Assembly (NCBI GenBank): GCA_965116875.1 | Contig: OZ220733.1 | Coordinates: 2,272,001-2,336,000, forward strand | Reading direction: 5' to 3' | From: Candidatus Latescibacterota bacterium | GTDB lineage: Bacteria > Latescibacterota > UBA2968 > GCA-2709665 | Length of the DNA stretch: 64,000 bases | Shown: piece after piece, positions 972-63,100 of the stretch | How positions within the stretch are numbered: position 1 is the stretch's first letter | Layout: the number at the start of each line of letters is the position of its first letter | Notes under the pieces: generated by a model | Database searches by the model: none | Told to the model about the DNA's origin: nothing | Seen by the model: the letters and a program-made list of their open reading frames with translations, nothing else | Translations under genes and position numbers: made by a program

Positions 972-2649
972 TCGATACGACCTGACCCGGTCCAGAATCC
1001 TCTTTCTGGCGGGACTGTCTGCCTTCTTTGTGTTTTTTCTGTTCTATCCGCTCTGGTACGCCGTTGTGCGAGCCCTGTGGGTAAACGGAGAATTCTCGCT
1101 CGTTTTCTTTGAGCTGATGGCAGGAAATCCGGTCTACACGGAGATGATTCTGAACAGTTTCCGTCTCGGAATGTTCACGACAATCGCAACGACACTGCTG
1201 AGTCTTCCCGTTGCATTCCTGCTGGTACGGTATGACTTCAGGGGCAAGAACGTCCTCAATGGTCTGATCCTGGTGCCCATGGTCCTCCCGCCGTTCGTGG
1301 GCGCGATCGGGATGAAACAGATGTTCGCCCGCTTCGGATCGATCAACCTTCTGCTGCTCGAGCTGGGAATCGTCGACCAGCCGATCGACTGGTTCGGGGG
1401 CGGGTTTACCGGCGTGGTCATTCTGCAGGTGTTGCACCTTTATCCCATTATGTTCCTGAACGTGGCTGCGGCGTTGGCGAATATCGACCCCAGCCTCGAA
1501 GAGGCCGCACGCAACATGGGGGCCCGCGGTTTCAGGCTGTTTCGAAGCGTCACCTTTCCGCTGATGTTGCCCGGCTATTTCGCGGGTGCGATCATTGTCT
1601 TCATCTGGGCGTTTACGGACCTTGGAACACCGCTGATCTTCAACTATCGCCAGGTGGTGATGGTCGAGATATTCAATGCTATATCAGATATCAACGAAAA
1701 CCCCATGGCGTATGCGCTCGTGGTTTTTCTTTTGCTGCTGACCGTGTTGTTTTTCTACCTGTCCAAGCTGTTGCTGGGCAAACGGAGGTACGAAATGGTT
1801 GCGCGGGGACACGTGGGTTCGGCAACCCGTCGTGCGACACCCGGGATGACCGCGTTCATCTACGGAGTCATGATCTCACTGACAGCCATCGCGCTGATCC
1901 CTCACCTGAGCGTTTTCCTGACCTCCATCTCCGAGCGCTGGTTCATGTCGATCTGGCCGCAGGAAATCACCGGCAGGTACTATCCGCTCGTATATCGGCA
2001 CCCGATCGCGGGCCCCAGTGTAACCATGAGCCTGATGCTGAGTACTTTCAGTACGATTTGCGACGTGGTACTCGGCATATCCATTGCCTATCTGCTTGCC
2101 CGTACCCGGGTCCCGTTCAGAGGCGCGCTGGACGCGGTCGCGATGCTACCGCTGGCCCTGCCGGGCCCGGTGCTGGCATTCGGGTATCTGGCCGGGTATT
2201 CCGGCACCTTTCTGGATGCGAGACACAATCCCGTGCCGCTGCTGGTTATCGCGTACGCGGTGAGACGACTGCCATATATGGTCAGATCTGCCTACGCAGG
2301 ATTCCAGCAAAGCAGTGTCGCTCTCGAAGAAGCGGCCAGGAATCTGGGCGCGTCTCCACTGCGCACGACTTTGCAGATTACCTTCCCGCTCATTCTCGCG
2401 AATCTGGTCGCCGGCGCCATTCTCTGTTTTTCCTTTGCCATGCTGGAAGTCAGCGACAGTCTGATACTTGCGTTGAAGACACAGTATTACCCCATCACCA
2501 AAGCCATCTACGCGTTGATGGGCAGGATTGCGGATGGGCCATACATTGCCAGCGCGATGGGCATGCTGGGCATGCTGCTTCTCATGCTCAGCCTCTTCCT
2601 GGCCGGACGGTTCCTGGGCCGGCGCATGGGGGAACTCTTCCGCGCGTAG
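955..2649 (+). CDS. ABC transporter permease with two BPD_transp_1 domains (FbpB/ThiP-like)
   Basis: Many TM helices; two EAA motifs (LEEAARNMGA, LEEAARNLGA); overlaps ATPase stop. Confidence 0.9.
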   Translation: MKTWLDRYDLTRSRILFLAGLSAFFVFFLFYPLWYAVVRALWVNGEFSLVFFELMAGNPVYTEMILNSFRLGMFTTIATTLLSLPVAFLLVRYDFRGKNVLNGLILVPMVLPPFVGAIGMKQMFARFGSINLLLLELGIVDQPIDWFGGGFTGVVILQVLHLYPIMFLNVAAALANIDPSLEEAARNMGARGFRLFRSVTFPLMLPGYFAGAIIVFIWAFTDLGTPLIFNYRQVVMVEIFNAISDINENPMAYALVVFLLLLTVLFFYLSKLLLGKRRYEMVARGHVGSATRRATPGMTAFIYGVMISLTAIALIPHLSVFLTSISERWFMSIWPQEITGRYYPLVYRHPIAGPSVTMSLMLSTFSTICDVVLGISIAYLLARTRVPFRGALDAVAMLPLALPGPVLAFGYLAGYSGTFLDARHNPVPLLVIAYAVRRLPYMVRSAYAGFQQSSVALEEAARNLGASPLRTTLQITFPLILANLVAGAILCFSFAMLEVSDSLILALKTQYYPITKAIYALMGRIADGPYIASAMGMLGMLLLMLSLFLAGRFLGRRMGELFRA

Positions 2650-2668
2650 GTTAAGGAGAACTCAGGAG

Positions 2669-3604
2669 ATGGTCTATATCGCTGTGGTTGTCCTGCTCAT
2701 GCTCGCGGTTATCTTCGCGCTCACGCGTGAACGGGAAACGCGAGGCAGAGGGGCTCCGACAGGAGACGATGCGCTGGCGGCGGACATGGCGGACCTGGTA
2801 ATCGAAGGCCGGAAGGAACACCTGCCGGCTGTCGGCCATCCGATATTGGGTGGGGCGCTTTGCGAATTGCTGGACCGCCTGGGGATAGAAGCAGAGCAGG
2901 TGCTGGTCGATCGTGGCTTTGCACGAGGCGACGGGGCGATACGCGCGGAAGACGAAAAGACCCGGAATCTGAAGGTTTTCGATCCCGCGGAAAACATGAT
3001 CCAGGTTGTAGAGCGGGCATTGCTCGTGGGGATTCAGTTGGCGCGCGCCGACGATGACTACGCCGGCGTGGGCGATGATCACCTGGATCTCGAGGCGCTG
3101 GCGCGCAAAGCCGAAGCTATCGAAATGGATCTGTTCGGCGACGGAAAGCGCGATCGTTACGTGTTCTACGGGAAGGCAGCGCTGGTGCTCCAGGATATGC
3201 TTCAGGATGAAAGAGAAGCGGCGCGACGGGAAGTCCTGCGAGGGCTGCTGGAGATGGTCGACGCAGAGATCGATGCCTTCCAGGAAGAGCTGGACCGGTC
3301 GATGGCGCACATCCCCGAGCCGGATACGTTGAGGTGGGGCGACCGGAGGGATCGACAGTTGTATTATTTCAAGATGGGCGTAACGAATTCACTGAGACGA
3401 AGCGGGCAGCTGGAGAGCCTGGGACACCTCTACCGGTACCGGGGGGTAAATTACGACGTCCTGGAAGCATATGACCTGGCGGCCCAGGACTGTCCGCAAC
3501 TCTTCGCGGCTGACGTAATTGGAATCGACGGATTGCTGCGACTGGCGTCCGGAGAGGTCCGGGCGCTGGCACGGCAGTCGCTTTCCGAGGGCGGAAGGCG
3601 CTAA
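2669..3604 (+). CDS. Hypothetical protein with N-terminal membrane anchor
   Basis: AAGGAG/AGGAG upstream of ATG 2669; MVYIAVVVLLMLAVIFALT hydrophobic start; acidic helical remainder. Confidence 0.7.
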   Translation: MVYIAVVVLLMLAVIFALTRERETRGRGAPTGDDALAADMADLVIEGRKEHLPAVGHPILGGALCELLDRLGIEAEQVLVDRGFARGDGAIRAEDEKTRNLKVFDPAENMIQVVERALLVGIQLARADDDYAGVGDDHLDLEALARKAEAIEMDLFGDGKRDRYVFYGKAALVLQDMLQDEREAARREVLRGLLEMVDAEIDAFQEELDRSMAHIPEPDTLRWGDRRDRQLYYFKMGVTNSLRRSGQLESLGHLYRYRGVNYDVLEAYDLAAQDCPQLFAADVIGIDGLLRLASGEVRALARQSLSEGGRR

Positions 3605-3844
3605 GAAATGTTGGAAAAGAAGTCAGATCTGCTGACGTGGTGCGTACATCGCGTTAGACACAGGACAGAACAAGAATCGGAAATGGAATTTGCGGACTTG
3701 CTTACAACCTTCTTCGATGGGCCCCAAGATCGGAGATCGACCACAAGAAAGCCATGTTCAGATTGACGAGTGCGAGCAAGACACAATTTACACCAGTTGA
3801 TTTGGCCAGGGTCTGGAAAAGTAGACATTCCTGACAGCGGCGAC

Positions 3845-4288
3845 CTAACGGTTCTTCCGTTTCATGAACCTGATTGGAGTCCCGTACGCTGGTCCGCTTA
3901 CGTCATTAACTTCACGATGAACTATATCCGCATTCGCGCCCATCTTGCTTGTCCAATGTCCATTCTCCAATTGTCTCGCCGCATGCGTCGGGATAAGGCG
4001 TCCATCATCGCTCAACTGAGCATACAGGGCGATTTTTTCGTAATTTTCCTCTAAGTCGCAGTCGTCACATTCCTGAAAATCCAATGATTCGAAAAATCCC
4101 AACAACGACTCGACAGATTCGTCCTTGTGTGTCTTTAGCGGCCAGAAAAAGGATGTCGGCCAGAGCCAGCAATCGTCAAAACCTGCAGCCCAGGCTACGC
4201 AGTTGTACACGCGAGTCGGCGGACTGTTAATCGAGTAATGAGCAGAATTCAGGTAAGGGAAATCGTCAGAATTCCATCTACTATCCAC
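3845..4288 (-). CDS. Conserved hypothetical with papain-like Cys/His motifs (DUF7689-like)
   Basis: YNCVAWA, HAARQLENGHWTSKMG, IVH...GPAYG motifs; GTG start overlaps upstream stop; family name from memory. Confidence 0.7.
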   Translation of the reverse strand: MDSRWNSDDFPYLNSAHYSINSPPTRVYNCVAWAAGFDDCWLWPTSFFWPLKTHKDESVESLLGFFESLDFQECDDCDLEENYEKIALYAQLSDDGRLIPTHAARQLENGHWTSKMGANADIVHREVNDVSGPAYGTPIRFMKRKNR

Positions 4289-4718
4289 TCTTGCCTCTCC
4301 ACCACGCGAGCCACGCTTTAGCCATTCGTACAGTCTTTCCGTAGTCTTCTTCCTGTATCGGAATCTCGCCTGTAATTTCGTGCAGGGCCATAAACCAAAG
4401 ATCGGGCTCTTCCTTGTGCTTTTCCAGGTCCTCCATTATGAATGGAAGCGCCCTTTCTCCCATTTCGACAATTTTCCGGTATGACTGACATTTGGCCATT
4501 GCAACTGGAGAAGACGTAAATCCTCGCTCTTCATGCCACTTCTGAACATGAATGGAAAATACGGCGCTATCAGGGAGGACGAACATCTCTGGATCGGAGG
4601 AATAGTAGACATCTCCATCAAACTCGTGGTGTTTAAAGTCAAACTCCGGAACACTATCTGTCCTTCCCTCCCCGTGTAGAACAGGGTGGGTCTGGGCACG
4701 AGCATAGCAGATTACCAT
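4281..4718 (-). CDS. Conserved hypothetical helical protein
   Basis: W...SS...YRKIVEMGERALPFIMEDL...WFMALHEITGE..AWLAWW pattern; translationally coupled to both neighbours. Confidence 0.65.
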   Translation of the reverse strand: MVICYARAQTHPVLHGEGRTDSVPEFDFKHHEFDGDVYYSSDPEMFVLPDSAVFSIHVQKWHEERGFTSSPVAMAKCQSYRKIVEMGERALPFIMEDLEKHKEEPDLWFMALHEITGEIPIQEEDYGKTVRMAKAWLAWWRGKSG

Positions 4719-4719
4719 A

Positions 4720-4962
4720 TCATTGCTCCTGCGTCAGGGGGCTGCTATGGACGTTTATTATATTGTTGCTCTTGACAACGTAGATTGGATTCCCAGACTG
4801 GTCAAACCGATTTTCGACGCGAACGACTTCCTGTGGAGTCGCTTTTATGTTTAGAATCGTCCCGTCATCAAGGCGTATTTGGCTAAACCTCTCGACGGAT
4901 TCAATTATTGTAACTTTCGTGCACTCGACCTCTTCGTTGTTCAAATTAATCTTCGGCGACAT
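4720..4962 (-). CDS. Small hypothetical beta-rich protein
   Basis: GGAG RBS before ATG 4962 (MSPKINLNNEEV...LDDGTILNIK...DQSGNPIYVV); stop 1 nt before next start. Confidence 0.65.
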   Translation of the reverse strand: MSPKINLNNEEVECTKVTIIESVERFSQIRLDDGTILNIKATPQEVVRVENRFDQSGNPIYVVKSNNIINVHSSPLTQEQ

Positions 4963-4998
4963 ACGTTTGCTCCACATCTGCCTGCGTGTTAAGCAGCT

Positions 4999-5280
4999 TT
5001 ACTGTGTTCTCCCACGGGCATTTTCGTAATAGGGACGCACGCGTTCGATGACTTCCGTGTCCAGTTTGCATTCAGAGACGATACGCGTGAATTCCTCTTC
5101 CGGCAAGCCGAGTTCCTCCAGGAACTTCTGGTCGGCCGGTCAGGGGTAGACGTAGTCTCCGATGTTGTTCCGCAGCATCGCCCGGGCCTTGTCCGTAATC
5201 CGCGGCAGCCAGGGGATACCGCCCATGGCGAGTGTTCTGCCTCGAGGGCGGAATTCGATGGAATCGTGCATGGTATCCAT
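4999..5280 (-). CDS. DUF5069-like protein, candidate selenoprotein (UGA at codon 47, 5142-5140), 93 aa
   Basis: AAGGAG RBS; MDTMHDSIEFRPRGRTLAMGGIPWLPRITDKARAMLRNNIGDYVYP-UGA-PADQKFLEELGLPEEEFTRIVSECKLDTEVIERVRPYYENARGRTQ-TAA in one frame; hairpin directly 3' of UGA. Confidence 0.72.
5100..5139 (-). promoter_or_regulatory. Putative bacterial SECIS element
   Basis: After UGA: CCGGCCGACCAGA-AGTTCC-TGGA-GGAACT-CGGCTTGCCGG; 6-bp upper stem, 4-nt loop with G at position 2, loop starts 19 nt after UGA; outer CCGGC/GCCGG pairing. Confidence 0.65.
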
Positions 5281-5377
5281 CTGTTCGGCTCCTTTCCGAA
5301 TAGGGGTTGGACAATAAAAGAATACCGGTATGAGCATACAAAAGCAAGCAGATATGGGGGTCCGGCGCTCACCCGGA

Positions 5378-5950
5378 TCAGCACACGGTGTTGTAGATGG
5401 ATAATGAAGTGCCGCCGTAGGTCTTCCTGACGCACAGCGAAAGGTGTTGTACAGTCACAGGCGTTTCAAGGTCTGCAGCATGTTGAATGAGGATATGGGT
5501 GGAACGCGCAACGAGGACCGATCCGCTCAGGCGGGAAAGCATGGCAAGTGCGTAAGGAACGCCGTTGATTCCAAGCTGGTAGGGCGGGTCAACGAAAATC
5601 ACATCGAAAGGCCGCTGTTCAGACTCCAGCAACGGCAGGAGTCTTTCCGCGTGAAGGTTCGTGACGCGGATCTGTTTTTCCGCCCTCCAGTCCTTCAGCA
5701 GCTTCGAAATAAAGCGGTGCCTTCCAGGTTCCGGTTCGTTCAGAAGCACCCGGGCCCCGCGGCTGTACGCCTCGAGGCCGATCTGGCCTGAACAGGAAAA
5801 CAGGTCGAGAAAATGAAGATGATCGAGCCTGGCGCCCAGGATGTTGAATGCGGCCTCTTTGATCCTTGCCGGCGTTACGCGGGCGTTACCGTGTTTCCTG
5901 ACGTCAAAGGGGATGGTCCGGCCTTTGAGTTTTCCGGTGATAATACGCAT
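5378..5950 (-). CDS. rsmD: 16S rRNA m2G966 methyltransferase RsmD family
   Basis: MRIITGKLKGR start, FLDLFSCSGQIGLEAYSRGA SAM motif, FVDPPY, KTYGGT. Confidence 0.85.
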   Translation of the reverse strand: MRIITGKLKGRTIPFDVRKHGNARVTPARIKEAAFNILGARLDHLHFLDLFSCSGQIGLEAYSRGARVLLNEPEPGRHRFISKLLKDWRAEKQIRVTNLHAERLLPLLESEQRPFDVIFVDPPYQLGINGVPYALAMLSRLSGSVLVARSTHILIQHAADLETPVTVQHLSLCVRKTYGGTSLSIYNTVC

Positions 5951-6031
5951 GAGAAAGACGCTTCCCGCCACCCTGGCAGTCCGTTGAGAAAGTCGCTCTG
6001 CAGGCGAGGCCTGGTGTTCCGCCCCGGAACA

Positions 6032-9028
6032 CTAGAATCCCTCCAGGCGGCTCAGGTCCGCAACGCCGTTGGCGAGAGAGGCGATGCGTTGAACCATGGC
6101 CAGGCGCGCCCGGCGTAGTACCGGATCTTCATCCATCACCAGGACGTCCTCGAAGAAGCGGTTGATCGGGCCGCGAAGATCAGCCAGCACCGTTCCAAGG
6201 GTACCGATCCCGTCATCCGAACGGTCCATTGAGCGTTGAGCCGCTTCCCATTTCAGATGCAGGGCCCGCGAGGAAGGATCCGGATCTGCCTCCGGATTCA
6301 GGGAATAGGATTCATCCAGGTCACGAACGATGCGCTTGCAGCGCGCGTATGCATGGAGCGTTTCCGACCAGTTTTCCGAGCGGACCATCTGATCGAGTCC
6401 TTCCACGGTGGTTCTGAGCCCGAACGGGTCGTCGCATCCGCCCCCAAGCGCAGCCTCGACAACGTCATGACGAAAACCTTCCTCTTTGAGCTGTACGCCC
6501 AGGCGTCGCAGGATGAACGTATACGCTTCGTCCAGCCGATTGGGTTCAACCCGGATTGGAAGCCCGGCCGCCGCGGCCTCAAGTCCCTTCTTCAGGGAAA
6601 AGTGACGGCGTCTCCCGACAAGCAGCGCCAGCAGGCCCAGCGCGTCCCGACGCAACCCGTAGGGGTCGGCGGTCGACCGGGGCTTGATTCCGGCGCAGAA
6701 CAGACCGGCCAGGCTGTCCAGCCGGTCGGCGATGGAAACCGCGAATCCGGACTCGCTTGACGGCAGTACATCGCCGGGAAACCGAGGAAGATAATGCTCC
6801 TGGATGGCCGACGCCACTGCGTTGGATTCCCTGGACAACAAGGCATAGTAGCGGCCCATCACGCCCTGAAGGGACGTCATCTCCACGACCATTCCGGTGG
6901 CCAGATCGGCTTTGCACAGGCGGGACGCCCGTTTGGCCGTAATCAGCTCTCCTTCGTTCAGGCCCAGATCTGACCCGACGACAGGGAGCAGTTGCTCGAT
7001 TCTCACGCTCTTGTCCCTGACGGAGCCCAGTTCGTCCTGGAAGGTGAGCGTATCCAGACGCGGCAGGTATTCCTCCAGGGCCTTTCGGCCGTCTTCCCGG
7101 TAGAAGAAAGCGGCGTCCGCATATCTGGCGCGAACGACACTCTCGTTCCCTCGGACGACCGGACCGGGATCGGCCGGCCGGCCGTTGGACACCGCCACGA
7201 ACCACGGCAGCAGCCGGCCTGTTTCAGGGTGTACCACGGGAAAGCAGCGCTGGTACTTCTTGAGTACGGTGACCAGGACCTCTTCGGGAAGTTCGAGATG
7301 CGACTCGTCGAAACCGCCGCGCAGCGCGAATGGCGCTTCGACCAGGTCGGTAACTTCATCGAGCAGATCGGGATCCTCCGGAACACTGCCGCCGACCTCG
7401 CGCGCCCGCTCGAGTACCTGATTCCATATGGCTTCCCTTCGCCGTTCGCGGCTGACGATCAGGCCCAGTTCCTCCATCTTCGGGCGATAGGCGTCTGCGG
7501 ACGCCAACGGAACGGGCGGATCGCCATCGGGCCTCAGGCCGCGGCTGGTACCTCCACTCCGGATCCGTGCGAATGGAAACGATATGATCCGGTTTCCGAA
7601 TAGGGCGACGATCCAGCGCAGAGGTCGGGGATAGGCGAAGCCGCCGGAATCCCAGCGCATCGTTTTCGGGAAGTTCAACCCGTCGATCAGGCCCGGAAGG
7701 TGTTCGGTCAGGACTTGCGGCGTTTCAAGTCCGGGCTCGTGGCGCCGGGCATAGACATATTCAACGCCTTTATCGTCCTTCCTGTGTTCCACCGAACCGG
7801 TCGAGATACCCTGTCCGCGGCAGAACCCTTCAAGTGCGCGCGTCGGCCTGCCTTCACCGTCGTACGCGGCCCTGACGGCCGGACCGCGGACCTCCCGCTC
7901 CCGGTCGGGCTGGCGTCCCTGGAGATTCCTGACGCTGGCTACAAGCCTTCTGGGCGTGCCCGTTATTTCGATTTCGTCATAACCAAGCCTCTGTTCTCGC
8001 AGAAGCTCGGGAAGGGACCGTTCGAGCTGCTCGATGCCGGAACGCACGTCATCTGGTGGCAATTCCTCGGATCCGATCTCCAGAAGCAGGTCGGCGCGCT
8101 CCTGTGAACCAACGTCCCCACCGGGTTTCGGAGCGTGCGCCTCCACGGTTTTCCTGATGAGGGGGTGGCCTGACGCTTCACGCTGTTCCACAAACCCTTC
8201 GGCGACCTGCCTCGCGAGGTCGCGTATCCGTGCGAAGTACCGCGCACGCTCGGTTACGCCTATGGCGCCCCGGGTGTCCAGCAGGTTGAAGGTGTGAGAG
8301 CAACGCAGGACGTAGTCGTGGGCGGGAATCACGAGTCCGCGGTCTATGGCGGCTTTCGCTTCGTCATGGAACAGATCGAACATGGACTGCAGGCGACCGA
8401 CGTCCGCGTGGTGGAACTCGTAATTGCAATATTCCACCTCCTGCTGCCGGAGAATGTCGCCGTAGGAAACCTGTTCGTTCCAGCGGAGTTGCCAGACTTC
8501 GCGAACGTCCTGCACGTACATGGCGATACGTTCCATGCCGTAGGTGATCTCCACGGGCACGGGGTCGAGCTGCTGGCCTCCGGCCTGCTGGAAATAGGTG
8601 AACTGGGTGATTTCCAGGCCGTCGAGCCAGACCTCCCAGCCCAGGCCCCACGCGCCGAGACCGGGCGATTCCCAATTGTCCTCCACGAAACGGATGTCGT
8701 GGTGCCTGCGGCTGAGACCCAACGCCTCCAGGCTGTCCAGGTAGAGTTCCTGGGGGTTGCCCGGCTCCGGCTTGAGAACAACCTGGTACTGCGTGTGCAT
8801 CTGCATTCTGTTCGGGTTTTCGCCGAATCGACCGTCGTCGGGTCGAAAGCTGGGTTCTACGTACGCCACGTTCCACGGCTCCGGCCCCAGCACCCGAAGC
8901 GCCGTACTCGGATTCCATGTGCCCGCGCCCACCTTTTCGCTGAGCGGCTGCCAGACGATACACCCATGATTCGCCCAGAATCGCTCAAGGCGAAGAATGA
9001 GTTCCTGGAAGGTCGTTTCGGCCTTCAC
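6032..9028 (-). CDS. glyQS: Glycine--tRNA ligase, fused alpha+beta subunits
   Basis: Alpha: [47 protein letters not shown]; beta: [41 protein letters not shown]; GTG 9028 after AGGAAAAGG. Confidence 0.95.
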
Positions 9029-9077
9029 GGGCCTTTTCCTTTCTGTGTTCCCGGCGGACGATTTCCGATCGAGCAAT

Positions 9078-10280
9078 CTAACCCGACCCGGAGATCCGCT
9101 CGATGGGCGTCTTGGAGACTCTGGCTTTAACGATTTTCTGGATCTGCCTGATCGAACGCTCGACGTTCCTGACTTTCTTCTTGCCGTTGTGTACGGCAAC
9201 CGTAAGGTCCATCCGGCGGGTATCGCCGGCATCGAGGCTGACGACCCGGCCCTGTTTGCGCTCGAAAGGCTTCGGGTTCGGGTAGTTGGTGGCCGGTTCC
9301 AGGCCCGCGACGTACCCGTCTTCGGCTGCCGCGGTATTCTTCCAGAGCGTAAAACAGGGCAACTGGTTGAGCGAGCAGTGCAGGCTGGAACCCAGGTCTC
9401 CTTTGGCGTTCCTGAGCAAGATCGCCGTCTGTCCGCTGCCACGCTTTCCCGCCAGTTCATAAAAGAAGACCTGTTCGACAAAACCGGACTCCGGCGCCCC
9501 GAATTTGCCATATGTGGAGGCCCCCTTCTGCGCCGTGGCGTCTCTGGGAGATACGGATTTCACGGGCGCTACAAGGGCGCTGCCCTCTTCCAGCAGCGGA
9601 GGGCCGTAATTGCAGTGGTACAACATCTGCATTTCGGCGGGTCTGTTGTTGAGATTGGTAATCCGATCTGAAATGGTAAAGCTGTTGGATCCGGGCTCCG
9701 TGGAAATGTGCGTGGTCAATCGCAGCGCGGGACCGAACATCATGGCTTCGTCCACAACGCCAACCACGGTGATTCGATGCGGCGGAGACAGGTCGATGAG
9801 AACCTCGACGCGGCGCGCGGGAATGTTCGCGATCTTCCCGTGCAGGGGAAGGAAAACGGTGGCATGGTTGCCATTGTTGTCGATGACCACGTCGTTCGTC
9901 GGCGCGCCGTTGCTTTCCATGCCGCAGCGAACGATCCACTCGTTGAAGCCCTTCAGCCAGCCGAGGCCACCCCGGTCGTTGGCATCGACGTGGGCCGGAT
10001 GGACCAGGTCGCGAACGGGGGATTCCCAGCCCAGTGGGATACCCCGGTAGACGCCCTTCCAGATGCCCATGCCGCGTGTCGGTACGATCGTGAACGAGAA
10101 AGCGCCGTTGTTCACTTCAACAAGGTCGATACCCGCCTGCAGGCCGCCGTGAAGGGTTTTCTTTTGTACGCTCCACGCATATCCGGTCCCCAGCGAGAGG
10201 GTTTCCTCATCCATGCATCCGGACTCGACCCATTGGCCGCGATCCACGTCGGTCAGCACGTGACGAAACACGCCGCCCAT
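9078..10280 (-). CDS. Aldose 1-epimerase family protein (DUF4432-like)
   Basis: GGAG RBS before ATG 10280; [36 protein letters not shown] motifs. Confidence 0.85.
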
Positions 10281-57181: not shown

Positions 57182-60100
57182 TTGAAAACACAAATCTTCA
57201 CTCGCCTTTCACCATCCTCTCCGCTCGTACGGTTCATCGCCAGCCTGGTGTTCCTGGCATCGGCCGTCGCGGTGGATTCGCCGGCAGTCACAGCCGCCGA
57301 GACCGTGTCGGCGTCACTGAACGTCACCGGCGCGACGGCCGCCGAGGGCGACGGGAGCCTATCGTTCACCGTAAGCCTGAGCCAGGCAGCCGGCGACGCC
57401 GTGACCGTGGCCTGGACCACCTCCGACGGGACGGCAGAGGCCGGGTCGGACTACACGGCCGCCAGTGGCACGCTGACGTTCCCCGCCGACGGTGAGACGC
57501 TGAGCCGGACGATCACCGTGGCGGTCACCGACGACGCCGTGGACGAAGCCGACGAGACGTTCACCGTCACGCTGAGCGAGCCCTCGAACGCGACCCTGGC
57601 GACCGCCGCGGCCACCGCCACGATCACCGACGACGACGACCGCGGCGTGACGGTCTCTCCGACGGCGCTGACGGTGGACGAGGGCGGCGACAGCTTTTAC
57701 TCGGTTGTGCTGGCATCGCGGCCGACCGCCGACGTGACGGTGAGCGTGAGTGCGCCCTCCGGCACGGACGTGTCGGCCGATCCCACGACCCTGTCGTTCT
57801 CCGCCAGCACCTGGAACACCCCTCAAACGGTAACCGTATCTGCGGCGGCCGACGACGACGCGACAGCCGACGAGGCCGTGACGCTGACGCACGCGGTCAG
57901 CGGCGGCGACTACGACGGCGAGACCGCCGCCGATGTAACGGTCACGATCACCGAGACCGATACGCCGGCGCTGTCCATCTCGGACGCGACGGCCGCCGAG
58001 GGCGACGGGAGCGTATCGTTCACGGTAAGCCTGAGCCAGATCGGCAGCGACGACGTGACCGTGGGGTGGGCTACCACCGACGGCACGGCCACCGGCGACG
58101 ACTACACTGCGGTCAGTGGCACGCTGACGTTCAGCCCGGGCGAGACGCTTAGCCAGACGATCACCGTGGCCATAGCCGACGATCAGATAGACGAGGACGA
58201 CGAGACGTTTACCGTCACGCTGAGCGATCCGGCGAACGCGACGCTGGCGACGGCGACGGCCACGGGCACGATCACTGACGACGACACCCGCGGCGTGGCG
58301 GTCAGTCCGCAGACGCTGACGATGGACGAAGGCAGCGACGACACCTACGAGGTGGTGCTGGCCTCCCAGCCGACTGCCGACGTGACCGTGAGCGTGAGTG
58401 TGCCCTCCGATACGGATGTGTCGGTGGATCAGACGACTTTGACGTTCACCGCCAGCGACTGGAACACCGCGCAGACGGTCACGGTGAGTGCGGCCGCCGA
58501 CGACGACGTGATAGCCGACGACGACGTGACGCTGACTCATTCGGTCAGCGGCGGCGACTACGACAGCGCAAGTGCCGACGATGTGGTGGTGACCATCACC
58601 GAGACCGACACGGTGGAACTGAGCATAGCGGGTGGGAGTGCGGCCGAGGACGCCGGTAGTATCTCGTTCACCGTAAGCCTGAGCCAGATCGGCAGCGACG
58701 ACGTAACCGTGGGGTGGGCAACCGCCAACGGCACGGCCACTGCTGGCGATGACTACACCGCGGCCGACGGCACGCTGACGTTCAGCCCGGGCGAGACGCT
58801 TAGCCAGACGATCACCGTGGCCATAGCCGACGATCAGATAGACGAGGACGACGAGACGTTTACCGTTACGCTGAGCGATCCGGCCAACGCGACGCTGGCC
58901 ACGGCGACGGCCACGGGCACGATCACTGACGACGACACCCGCGGCGTGACGGTCAGTCCACAGACGCTGACGATGGACGAAGGCAGCGACGACACCTACG
59001 AGGTGGTGCTGGCCTCCCAGCCGACCGCCGAGGTGACCGTGAGCGTGAGTGTGCCCTCCGACACGGATGTATCGGTAGATCAGACGAGCTTGACATTTAC
59101 GGCGGACACTTGGAACACGGCGCAGACGGTCACGGTGAGTGCGGTCGACGACGACGATGTGATAGCCGACGACGACGTGACACTGACGCATTCAGTCAGC
59201 GGCGGCGACTACGACGGCGCAAGTGCCGACGATGTGGTGGTCACGATTGTCGAAACGGACACGGCGGAACTGAGCGTAGAGGGTGAGAGTGCGGCCGAGG
59301 ACGCCGGTAGTATCTCGTTCACCGTAAGCCTGAACACAGAAAGCAGCGACGCCGTGACCGTGGCGTGGACCACCGACGACGGCACCGCTACCGCTGGCGA
59401 CGACTACACCGCGGCCGACGGCACGCTGACGTTCAGCCCGGGCGAGACGCTCAGCCAGACCATCACCGTGACCATAGCCGACGATCAGATAGACGAAGCC
59501 GACGAGACGTTTACCGTCACGCTGAGCGATCCGGCGAACGCGACGCTGGCTGCCGCTTCGGCCACCGCCACGATCACCGACGACGACGTTCGCGGCGTGA
59601 CGGTGCGTCCGACGGCGCTGACGGTGGATGAGGGCGGCGACGATTCCTACGAGATCGCGCTGACCTCGCAGCCGACCGCCGACGTGACGGTGAGCGTGAG
59701 TGCGCCCTCCGGTACGGACGTTTCGGCCGCCCCCACGACGCTGACGTTCACCGCCGGCGACTGGAACACGCCCCAAACGGTAACCGTCAGTGCGGCCGAC
59801 GATGACGACGCGATCGCCGACGATCAGGTGACGCTGACGCACACGGTCAGCGGCGGCGACTACGACGGCGAGACCGCCGCCGATGTAACGGTCACGATCA
59901 CCGAGACCACGTTGCCGGAGCTGAACATTGCCGACACCACGGCCGTCGAGGGGGACGGCAGCCTGGTGTTCCGGGTGAGCCTGAGCCAGGCCGGCGGCGA
60001 GGCCGTGACCGTGGCCTGGACCAGCGTCGACGGCACGGCAGAGGCCGGTTCGGATTACACGGCCGCCAATGGCACGCTGACGTTCAGCCCGGACGATGGG

Positions 60101-63100
60101 CTCAGCCAGACCATCACGGTAGCGATCGCAGACGACGACGTGGACGAGGCCGACGAGACGTTTACCGTCACCCTGAGCGAGCCGGCCAACGCGACGCTGG
60201 CTGCCGCTACGGCCACGGGCACGATCACCGACGACGACGTCCGCGGCGTGACGGTCTCTCCGACGGCGCTGACGGTGGATGAGGGCGGCGACGATTCCTA
60301 CGAGATCGCACTGACCTCGCAGCCGACCGCCGACGTGACGGTGAGCGTGGGTGCGCCCTCCGGCACGGACGTGTCGGCCGATCCTACGACCCTGTCGTTC
60401 ACCGCCGGCGACTGGAACACCCCTCAAACGGTAACCGTATCTGCGGCGGCCGACGACGACGCGACAGCCGACGAGGCCGTGACGCTGACGCACGCGGTCA
60501 GCGGCGGCGACTACGACGGCGAAAGCGCGGCCGATGTAACGGTCACGATCACCGAGACCGATACGCCGGCGCTGTCCATCTCGGACGCGACGGCCGCCGA
60601 GGGCGACGGGAGCGTGTCGTTCACGGTGAGCCTGAGCAAGGCCGGCAGCGAGGCCGTCACCGTGGCCTGGACCACCTCCGACGGCACCGCCAGCGCCGGC
60701 GAGGACTACACCGCCGCCAGTGGCACCCTGACGTTCAGCCCGGGCGAGGCGCTGATCCAGACGATCTCCGTGGCGCTCGCCGACGACGCCGTGGACGAGG
60801 CCGACGAGACGTTCACCGTCACGCTGGGCGAGCCGTCGAACGCGACCCTGGCGGCCTCCACGGCCACCGGTACCATTATAGATGACGACACCCGCGGGGT
60901 GACCGTCAGTCCGACGGCCCTGACCGTGGAGGAGGGCGGCAGCCAGACCTACACGGTGGCGCTGACCTCCCAGCCGACGGGGGACTTGACGGTGACGGTG
61001 GGCGGCGCCTCCGGGGACGTGACCGCGGACACGGATTCGGAGACGGCCGGCGACCAGGCCACGCTGACGTTCCCGGCCGGCGACTGGAACACCCCCCGGA
61101 CAGTCACCGTCAGCGCGGCCGAAGACGACGACCTGGCGGCCGACGATGCGGTGACGCTGACGCACGCGGTCAGCGGCGGCGACTACGACGGCGAGACCGC
61201 CGCCGATGTAACGGTCACGATCACCGAGACCGATACGCCGGCGCTGTCCATCTCGGACGCGACGGCCGCCGAGGGCGACGGGAGCGTGTCGTTCACGGTG
61301 AGCCTGAGCCAGGCCGGCGGCGACGCCGTGGCCGTGGCGTGGACCACCGGCGACGGGACGGCAGAGGCCGGTTCGGATTACACGGCCGCCAGTGGCACGC
61401 TGACGTTCCCCGCCGACGGTGAGACGCTGAGCCGGACGATCACGGTAGCGATCACCGACGACGACGTGGACGAAGCCGACGAGACGTTCACCGTCACGCT
61501 GAGCGAGCCCTCGAACGCGACCCTGGCGACCGCCGCGGCCACCGCCACGATCACCGACGACGACGACCGCGGCGTGACGGTCTCTCCGACGGCGCTGACG
61601 GTGGACGAGGGCGGCGACAGCTTTTACTCGGTTGTGCTGGCATCGCGGCCGACCGCCGACGTGACGGTGAGCGTGAGTGCGCCCTCCGGCACGGACGTGT
61701 CGGCCGATCCCACGACCCTGTCGTTCTCCGCCAGCACCTGGAACACCCCTCAAACGGTAACCGTATCTGCGGCGGCCGACGACGACGCGACAGCCGACGA
61801 GGCCGTGACGCTGACGCACGCGGTCAGCGGCGGCGACTACGACGGCGAGACCGCCGCCGATGTAACGGTCACGATCACCGAGACCGATACGCCGGCGCTG
61901 TCCATCTCGGACGCGACGGCCGCCGAGGGCGACGGGAGCGTGTCGTTCACGGTGAGCCTGAGCCAGGCCGGCAGCGAGGCCGTGACCGTGGCGTGGACCA
62001 CCGGCGACGGTACGGCCGACGGCGACGACTACACGGCCGCCAATGGCACGCTGACGTTCGCCGCCAACAGCGAGGCGCTGACCCAGACGATCGCGGTGGC
62101 GCTCGCCGACGACGACGTGGACGAGGCCGACGAGACGTTTACCGTCACCCTGAGCGAGCCGGCCAACGCGACGCTGGCTGCCGCTACGGCCACGGGCACG
62201 ATCACCGACGACGACGTCCGCGGCGTGACGGTCTCTCCGACGGCGCTGACGGTGGATGAGGGCGGCGACGATTCCTACGAGATCGCACTGACCTCGCAGC
62301 CGACCGCCGACGTGACGGTGAGCGTGGGTGCGCCCTCCGGCACGGACGTGTCGGCCGATCCCACGACCCTGTCGTTCACCGCCGGCGACTGGAACACCCC
62401 TCAAACGGTAACCGTATCTGCGGCGGCCGACGACGACGCGACAGCCGACGAGGCCGTGACGCTGACGCACGCGGTCAGCGGCGGCGACTACGACGGCGAA
62501 AGCGCGGCCGATGTAACGGTCACGATCACCGAGACCGATACGCCGGCGCTGTCCATCTCGGACGCGACGGCCGCCGAGGGCGACGGGAGCGTGTCGTTCA
62601 CGGTGAGCCTGAGCAAGGCCGGCAGCGAGGCCGTCACCGTGGCCTGGACCACCTCCGACGGCACCGCCAGCGCCGGGTCGGACTACACGGCCGCCAGTGG
62701 CGCCCTGACGTTTCCCGTCGACAGCGAGACGCTGAGCCGGACGATCACCGTGGCGCTCGCCGACGACGCCGTGGACGAGTCCGACGAGACGTTCACCGTC
62801 ACGCTGAGCGACCCGTCGAACGCGACCTTGGCGATCGCCACGGCCACCGCCACGATAACCGACGACGACGACCCGCCCGCGGTGAGCGTGGCCGACTCCA
62901 GCGCCGCGGAAGACGACGGCTTCATTGAGTTTGCCGTGAGCCTGAGCCAGGCCAGCGGCCGTTTTGTGACGGTGGAATGGACGACGGCAGCGGACGACGA
63001 AGGGGTCAGCCCGGCGACGGCGGGCGAGGATTACTTTGAGTCACTCGGTATGCTGCTATTCGAGCCGGGAAGCACGGAACAGACGATCCGCGTTCAGTTG

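Follow-up and report, generated by a model that had tools for sequence, protein, structure and literature searches.

A probable selenoprotein gene of the DUF5069 family in a Latescibacterota genome and the hairpin that accompanies its in-frame UGA

Our analysis of a 64,000-nucleotide stretch from a Candidatus Latescibacterota bacterium (the window, here and below) indicates that the reverse-strand gene at 4999-5280 is, very probably, a real selenoprotein gene that uses the ordinary bacterial mechanism of selenocysteine (Sec) insertion. In the mechanism that we propose, the UGA at codon 47 would be decoded by Sec-tRNA(Sec), delivered by SelB after docking on a stem-loop that lies within the coding sequence, 13-30 nt past this codon. 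The same element, GUUCC-UGGA-GGAAC, would double as coding sequence for K/R-F-L-E-E, and the predicted product is a 93-residue short-form DUF5069 domain, a beta-hairpin plus four helices, in which Sec would stand in for the single nearly invariant Cys found in DUF5069 proteins.

The gene, its reading frame and its neighbourhood

As the earlier note had read from the letters, a strong ribosome binding site precedes an ATG (5280-5278, reverse strand), the frame contains one TGA at 5142-5140 and it continues unchanged to a TAA at 5001-4999 (Table 1). The truncation that the note had described in the ORF track is also there, the mechanical list closing the frame at the TGA and giving an ORF of 65 aa at 5140..5337. 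The DUF5069 homologues share the Met-Asp start with the window gene in the alignment. The 93-aa read-through product, translated with TGA as U, contains GDYVYP-U-PADQKFLEELG, that is, GDYVYP-U-PADQKFLEELGL.

Upstream of the gene and on the same strand lie an RsmD-like methyltransferase gene and, farther away, a fused glycyl-tRNA synthetase gene. The order glyQS - rsmD-like - DUF5069 is retained within the family and the order to which the window belongs, and the RsmD-like gene cluster (cluster 0) was found in the flanks of 36 of 81 DUF5069 loci. The fused glyQS ORF (6032-9511, reverse strand) has 1159 codons from its putative start and its alpha domain begins only at residue 168; the N-terminal stretch ahead of this domain had no Pfam match. 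On the other side, three small reverse-strand ORFs (4720-4977, 4281-4718 and 3845-4288) stand between the candidate gene and a conserved forward-strand gene at 2528-3604; among these ORFs of the 3600-4980 region one matches DUF7689 and two are without Pfam match. Elsewhere in the genus, the loci have the counterparts of the candidate gene and of 2528-3604 directly adjoining, and the small ORFs may thus be a local insertion, some 1.3 kb long. Elsewhere in the window, a 1282-codon open frame ending in TGA (59192-63040, reverse strand) matched no Pfam family at E <= 1e-10.

Table 1. Positions of the candidate gene, its elements and its neighbours (numbering of the window unless another locus is named)
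Feature	Position	Strand	Details
Full DUF5069 candidate selenoprotein CDS	4999..5280	(-)	93 codons + TAA; predicted Sec = codon 47; translation with TGA=U
Shine-Dalgarno-like AAGGAG	5289..5294	(-)	8-nt spacer to ATG; read directly from the sequence
Putative Sec codon UGA, codon 47	5140..5142	(-)	same codon TGA in relatives, otherwise TGC/TGT
Putative apical SECIS hairpin	5110..5127	(-)	6-bp stem 5126-5121 / 5116-5111, loop UGGA 5120-5117; outermost 5127/5110 unpaired (A-C)
Whole putative SECIS region	5100..5139	(-)	including lower stem CCGGC 5139-5135 / GCCGG 5104-5100
RsmD-like methyltransferase (Cons_hypoth95)	5378..5971	(-)	Pfam E 4.3e-32; upstream neighbour of the DUF5069 gene, same strand
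Fused glycyl-tRNA synthetase alpha+beta	6032..9511	(-)	Pfam tRNA-synt_2e + tRNA_synt_2f; farther upstream, same strand
Glutaredoxin + pyridine-nucleotide-disulfide-oxidoreductase fusion	L129:1747-2970; matching gene in L132	same strand as DUF5069	408 residues

A family with Cys at the site and the conservation of the UGA

The read-through protein matched Pfam DUF5069 (PF16798; E 1.9e-13, 51.2 bits against a cut-off of 27) over profile positions 4-74 of 133 only, and no NCBIfam family matched it at E <= 0.1. The assignment made in the earlier note from the letters alone was thus borne out, and so was its statement that DUF5069 proteins carry Cys at this site (Y.YPCP.D). In this regard, when 1.84 billion cluster representatives were searched, 370 matched at E <= 0.001, and realignment of the best 148 of these yielded 285 domain matches, 163 of them covering the site. 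Among these 163 domains the residue was C in 111, S in 22, T in 11 (all in one repeat protein), W in 1 and another residue in 11, and 7 domains, from truncated clusters, were cut off exactly at the site. Cys is also present in PDB 3omd, where Y-N-C-P-L-D aligns with Y-P-U-P-A-D. In the alignment of 114 single-domain members, C47 belongs to a small number of nearly invariant columns, and there is no further conserved Cys; the motif at the site is Y-x-Y/F-P-C/U-P-x-D. The genome of the window and most relatives also encode a protein of 430-480 residues with three DUF5069 repeats (G000:C1:3075480-3075677, reverse strand, and matching places); in a representative of this type, P0022, the site is Cys in a single repeat and Ser or Arg in the remaining two.

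Public annotation treats the two forms differently. Among the 17 database homologues, Y-P-C-P-A-D occupies the site in 13, all full length; three (P0013, P0014 and P0018) end exactly at Y-P and one has W; the W recorded at the site in P0004 and P0019 is probably the result of translation under a UGA=Trp code. In NCBI naming, the Cys forms are called 'DUF5069 domain-containing protein', whereas the Sec forms are truncated, unnamed or 'hypothetical protein'.

The UGA itself is widely conserved. An orthologue was found at E <= 1e-15 in 119 of the 168 genomes of the phylum, all of one class (families f1-f4), and 104 of these 119 have the in-frame TGA, the remaining 15 having none. The first genome search returned 40 loci, seven of which fell outside the peptide pattern and were left out (L042, L047, L052, L054 and L061-L063); the 33 parsed loci had TGA at the site in 30 cases and Cys in three. 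In the species-representative collection, which shares genomes with the first set, TGA was found in 61 of 80 loci and Cys in 19 (14 TGC, 5 TGT). These 80 loci are labelled mostly as Candidatus Latescibacterota metagenome-assembled genomes and otherwise as Gemmatimonadota, Poribacteria, Planctomycetota, Opitutales and Handelsmanbacteria. The position of the TGA codon was identical in every parsed locus, 24 codons past a P-W-L motif.

These counts bear directly on the idea that the TGA is a private nonsense mutation, the mark of a pseudogene or a sequencing error, for which nothing speaks beyond the bare stop codon. The same TGA recurs in 104 genomes of four families and in 61 of the 80 public loci, both flanks of the codon are under purifying selection (see below), and DNA assembled independently agrees with the window. 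Contigs from two public runs of different studies (X2 record 7 and X3 record 11; labelled as sponge and coral reef metagenomes) span the TGA. They show three and nine differences outside it, and none at 5140-5142 or in the hairpin. The earlier note had named a codon shared by no relatives, or reads with TGC or TGT, as grounds for dropping the candidate; relatives do share the codon and the bridging contigs keep TGA, and an explanation by private mutation or error, which had practically no probability left, is refuted. In a third run, X1, we observed very short contigs (31-42 nt) on the UGA and hairpin stretch (window 5113-5164) with three to four differences, at depths of 160-296, whereas the contig of the window itself has a depth of 16; they probably stem from abundant relatives in the same sample that share this most conserved piece. 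Additionally, one RNA-library contig is identical to the window over 4836-5024, the 3' end of the gene only, and does not bridge the UGA; as evidence of expression it is thin and proves little, as RNA libraries can hold DNA.

The frame downstream of the UGA appears to be protein coding. The median dN/dS over 400 sequence pairs was 0.135 across the 36 codons that precede the UGA and 0.255 across the 36 that follow it, and the latter value indicates that the downstream part is translated in the same frame. A true stop, leaving a 46-residue N-terminal fragment only and a downstream part conserved as a separate small gene or RNA element, is hard to reconcile with this value, even though gene callers yield exactly such truncated proteins (P0013, P0014, P0018 and the seven truncated clusters). 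The 46 codons after the UGA stay in phase, their product can be aligned to the second, C-terminal half of the Cys homologues, the Cys forms are single uninterrupted genes, and the predicted fold needs helices 48-92. We therefore give the true stop very little credence and retain translation through codon 47. Within the sequences compared, the Sec/Cys pair, the conserved UGA and the purifying selection downstream of it together make up a recoding signature.

Furthermore, the gene tree requires seven changes between the Sec and Cys labels, at least three of them forced by well-supported branches, and this number indicates that the two forms of the DUF5069 gene have been exchanged repeatedly.

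Sec machinery and the hairpin downstream of the UGA

The selA, selB, selC and selD genes, which the earlier note had proposed to look for, are all present in the genome of the window, which thus has a complete Sec machinery: selA, selB, tRNA-Sec and selD all scored above curated cut-offs. selA and selB lie side by side and the tRNA-Sec gene adjoins them (73.4 bits; tRNA-SeC(tca) according to ARAGORN). selD is itself a selenoprotein gene (G000:C1:1070717-1071640, forward strand, locus L001), with one in-frame TGA (TCG-U-AAKV) followed by CAGUCC-GGUC-GGACUG, a hairpin with its loop at a distance of 17 nt from that codon. This hairpin is comparable to that of the DUF5069 gene, the loops being GGUC in selD and UGGA in DUF5069.

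Across the phylum, selA was over the cut-off in 131 of 168 genomes and in 102 of the 104 genomes with the TGA form. The two TGA genomes without a selA match are 80% and 81% complete; a 73-bit tRNA-Sec is present in one of them and selB over the cut-off in the other. Among the 15 genomes with the Cys form, three had neither selA nor selB over the cut-off, and these three are the orthologue-bearing genomes in which both genes fall short of it.

This distribution has to be set against the possibility that the UGA is read through without Sec, either by a near-cognate tRNA inserting Trp, Cys or Arg or because UGA is a sense codon. The two database entries with W at the site (P0004 and P0019) could be taken in its favour, but they are probably UGA=Trp translations, and apart from them the relatives carry Cys, not Trp, at the site. 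TGA is the terminator of 13 of the 33 long ORFs of the window, including dnaE, the Mur ligase and the LD-carboxypeptidase (ldcA), the same three genes in which the earlier note had seen UGA as a normal stop; TGA is thus an ordinary stop and there is no genome-wide recoding. In addition, the TGA form tracks the Sec machinery, Cys forms occur where the machinery was not found, and the SelB-type hairpin is conserved only beside TGA. Read-through without Sec is therefore highly improbable in our view, and from the Cys relatives, the machinery and the hairpin we infer that selenium would actually be inserted at codon 47.

The stem-loop AGUUCC-UGGA-GGAACU occupies 5126-5111, with 13 nt between the UGA and the stem, a loop that starts 19 nt after the UGA and G at the second position of the loop; the earlier note had described it in the same terms, together with the outer CCGGC/GCCGG stem, which is present. 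The bSECIS model summarised in PMC13188914 comprises an apical loop of 3-9 nt, an upper stem of 4-16 bp, a G in the first two loop positions, a distance of 16-37 nt from the UGA to the loop and an MFE <= -7.5 kcal/mol. Our hairpin lies within all of these ranges as given there, with a loop of 4 nt, a stem of 6 bp, G at position 2, a spacing of 19 nt and an MFE of -18.3 kcal/mol (46 nt starting at the UGA). The claim that the hairpin fits the bacterial SECIS model accordingly stands for each value of the model as published in that text, and it does not carry further, as geometry alone does no better than chance and the lower stem CCGGC/GCCGG is confined to the genus of the window. Folded alone, 66 nt gave a z of -0.98, with 33 of 200 shuffles folding equally well, and a crude scan of the 5.45-Mb genome picked out 568 in-frame TGAs that have open frames to either side and a comparable hairpin at a distance of 15-23 nt. 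We therefore rejected the geometry as evidence on its own and take the conservation of the hairpin as the evidence; the crude scan was likewise rejected as a definition of the selenoproteome, being unspecific with its 568 hits. Rfam gave no match over window positions 4500-5800 at E <= 10, a result that depends on which bacterial SECIS models Rfam contains.

Conservation of the hairpin was evident at the level of single nucleotides. In 30 distinct Sec loci, codons +6 to +9 (F-L-E-E) were TTC CTG GAG GAA in 30 of 30 cases, whereas each of the other 27 degenerate codons for invariant residues used two to six codons. None of the 56 distinct Sec sequences has lost the hairpin (GUUCC-UGGA-GGAAC in the window), and wobble as well as compensatory changes occur within it: the six inner pairs were intact in 335 of 336 cells, the loop UGGA was invariant, and two C-to-U changes and one A-to-G change retained pairing by wobble. 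Pair 18-31 was G-C in 41 sequences, C-G in 15 and unpaired in none, and pair 17-32 was A-U in 37, G-U in 14 and G-C in 4. In the same 56 sequences a covariation score of 0.251 was reached by none of 500 shuffles, and pairing fell from 93% to 14-61% when the partner strand was slid. The sequences with the C-G form of pair 18-31 all fall on the same side of the deepest division in the gene tree; since they follow this split, the change from G-C to C-G probably represents one or two compensatory events and not fifteen.

The Cys sequences behaved differently. Among the 19 of them, pairing is retained in only 70.7% of the cells, 11 have a broken pair 18-31 and the loop varies. The apical hairpin was part of the MFE fold in 51 of the 56 Sec sequences and in 0 of the 19 Cys sequences, and the MFE was <= -7.5 kcal/mol in all 56 Sec rows. 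In this alignment, the putative SECIS is kept only where the UGA is kept. Two genomes, G022 and G034 (L081/L044 and L082/L045), have TGC within a genus that otherwise has TGA; both retain selA, and each shows one synonymous change (GAG to GAA in one, AAG to AAA in the other) that breaks one stem pair with respect to the TGA relatives. The TGC codons within a TGA genus, the broken pairs and the retained selA point to a recent Sec-to-Cys switch in these genomes, with early decay of the hairpin.

The prototype of selenoprotein genes with an intragenic SECIS is provided by the formate dehydrogenase genes of E. coli. The DUF5069 gene has in common with such bacterial genes a UGA at a Cys position, a stem-loop inside the coding sequence directly downstream, a small loop with G in its first two positions, a spacing of 19 nt and a genome that encodes selA, selB, selC and selD.

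Fold, possible function and place among selenoproteins

The AlphaFold2 model, built with 114 sequences (pLDDT 92.2, pTM 0.82), consists of a beta-hairpin (residues 18-23) and helices 25-36, 48-57, 61-70 and 74-92. In the model, Sec47 is the last loop residue before helix 48-57 and lies between P46 and P48. A helix N-cap position, as known in general from thiol oxidoreductases, would favour a reactive selenolate. From the modelled location of Sec47 at such an N-cap we infer that its selenolate would be of this reactive kind. Foldseek returned a single match at E <= 0.001, the PDB entry 3omd (E 3.1e-4; TMq 0.77; rmsd 1.6 A across 78 columns). This Leptospirillum rubarum protein is uncharacterised, and no function can therefore be read from the fold. 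Both proteins have the motif around the Cys/Sec in common; the window protein is shorter (93 aa compared with 145 aa) and would have Sec in place of Cys. Publications retrieved with '3OMD' were 3-O-methyldopa papers only, with nothing on the PDB entry. In contrast to the redox selenoproteins with a thioredoxin fold, the window protein is predicted as a beta-hairpin plus four helices and is without a conserved second Cys; its motif, U-P-A-D, contains no UxxC or CxxU, and neither the model nor Foldseek revealed a thioredoxin fold.

Gene neighbours and domain fusions were considered as guides to function and both were rejected. The neighbourhood hints at redox partners in places and is inconsistent between lineages. 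Two Poribacteria loci have a glutaredoxin/pyridine-nucleotide-disulfide-reductase fusion directly upstream of the Sec-form DUF5069 gene (Table 1), and in another clade an FNR-like NAD-binding oxidoreductase follows directly downstream, with a glycosyltransferase and a semialdehyde dehydrogenase also near. Among ten longer members tested for fusions, three contain Cupin_2 and one each an AI-2E transporter, a methyltransferase and a weak dienelactone hydrolase match, partners that point to no single function.

A tentative reading, to which we would give about one chance in three, is that the Sec may form a solitary redox-active or nucleophilic centre of the 1-Cys type, lacking a conserved partner Cys and recycled by an external reductant. 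A wider proposal, conceivable although doubtful, is that DUF5069 could represent a new catalytic or sensing scaffold with a non-thioredoxin fold and a single Cys/Sec at a helix N-cap between two prolines, whose role would be that of a 1-Cys redox centre, a redox switch or a carrier of sulfur or selenium. This scaffold would stand alone in sponge-associated Latescibacterota, Poribacteria and relatives and would occur elsewhere as a fused module (with cupins, a transporter or a methyltransferase), and its Sec form, in which the F-L-E-E codons belong to a hairpin whose nucleotides are fixed, would have been swapped for Cys repeatedly.

With regard to known selenoproteins, a literature search returned no mention of 'DUF5069' or 'PF16798'. 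PF16798 is absent from the 119 families in Table 1 of the May 2026 review PMC13188914, and DUF5069 is not named in the searched text of the deep-Sep (PMC12013277) and BSepDB (PMC13326102) papers. Within these sources, the remark in the earlier note that the family was not known to it as a described selenoprotein still holds: no paper naming it as such was found. According to the parts of the papers that we compared, the window protein resembles the hypothetical proteins DG, DW and DF of deep-Sep (PMC12013277) and GOS_A, GOS_B and GOS_C (PMC2398784), which are likewise small, with a Sec/Cys pair, a SECIS-like hairpin and no assigned biochemistry. DG, DW, DF, GOS_B and GOS_C have NCBIfam models according to Table 1 of PMC13188914, and none of these matches the window protein. 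GOS_A, described in PMC2398784 with 2 Sec and 155 Cys sequences and no domain, is absent from the 2026 table of PMC13188914; compared by this description only, the DUF5069 Sec family may be identical with it. As far as we have checked, in main texts and for GOS_A by description only, the Sec form of DUF5069 is a family not yet catalogued among the bacterial selenoproteins.

With the candidate gene, the bacterial selenoproteome would gain a family. In public annotation the Sec form of DUF5069 is cut to 45-75 residues or mistranslated, and the gene calls in more than 100 Latescibacterota-like genomes and in their relatives could now be corrected. The system also offers a clean natural experiment in the evolution of SECIS elements: where the UGA is kept, the hairpin fixes four codons together with the peptide F-L-E-E, and in the two congeneric genomes switched to TGC its erosion has begun. 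Lastly, the use of Sec, as read from the sequences, would mark the single conserved Cys of DUF5069 as the reactive residue and could provide a first handle on the function of the family.
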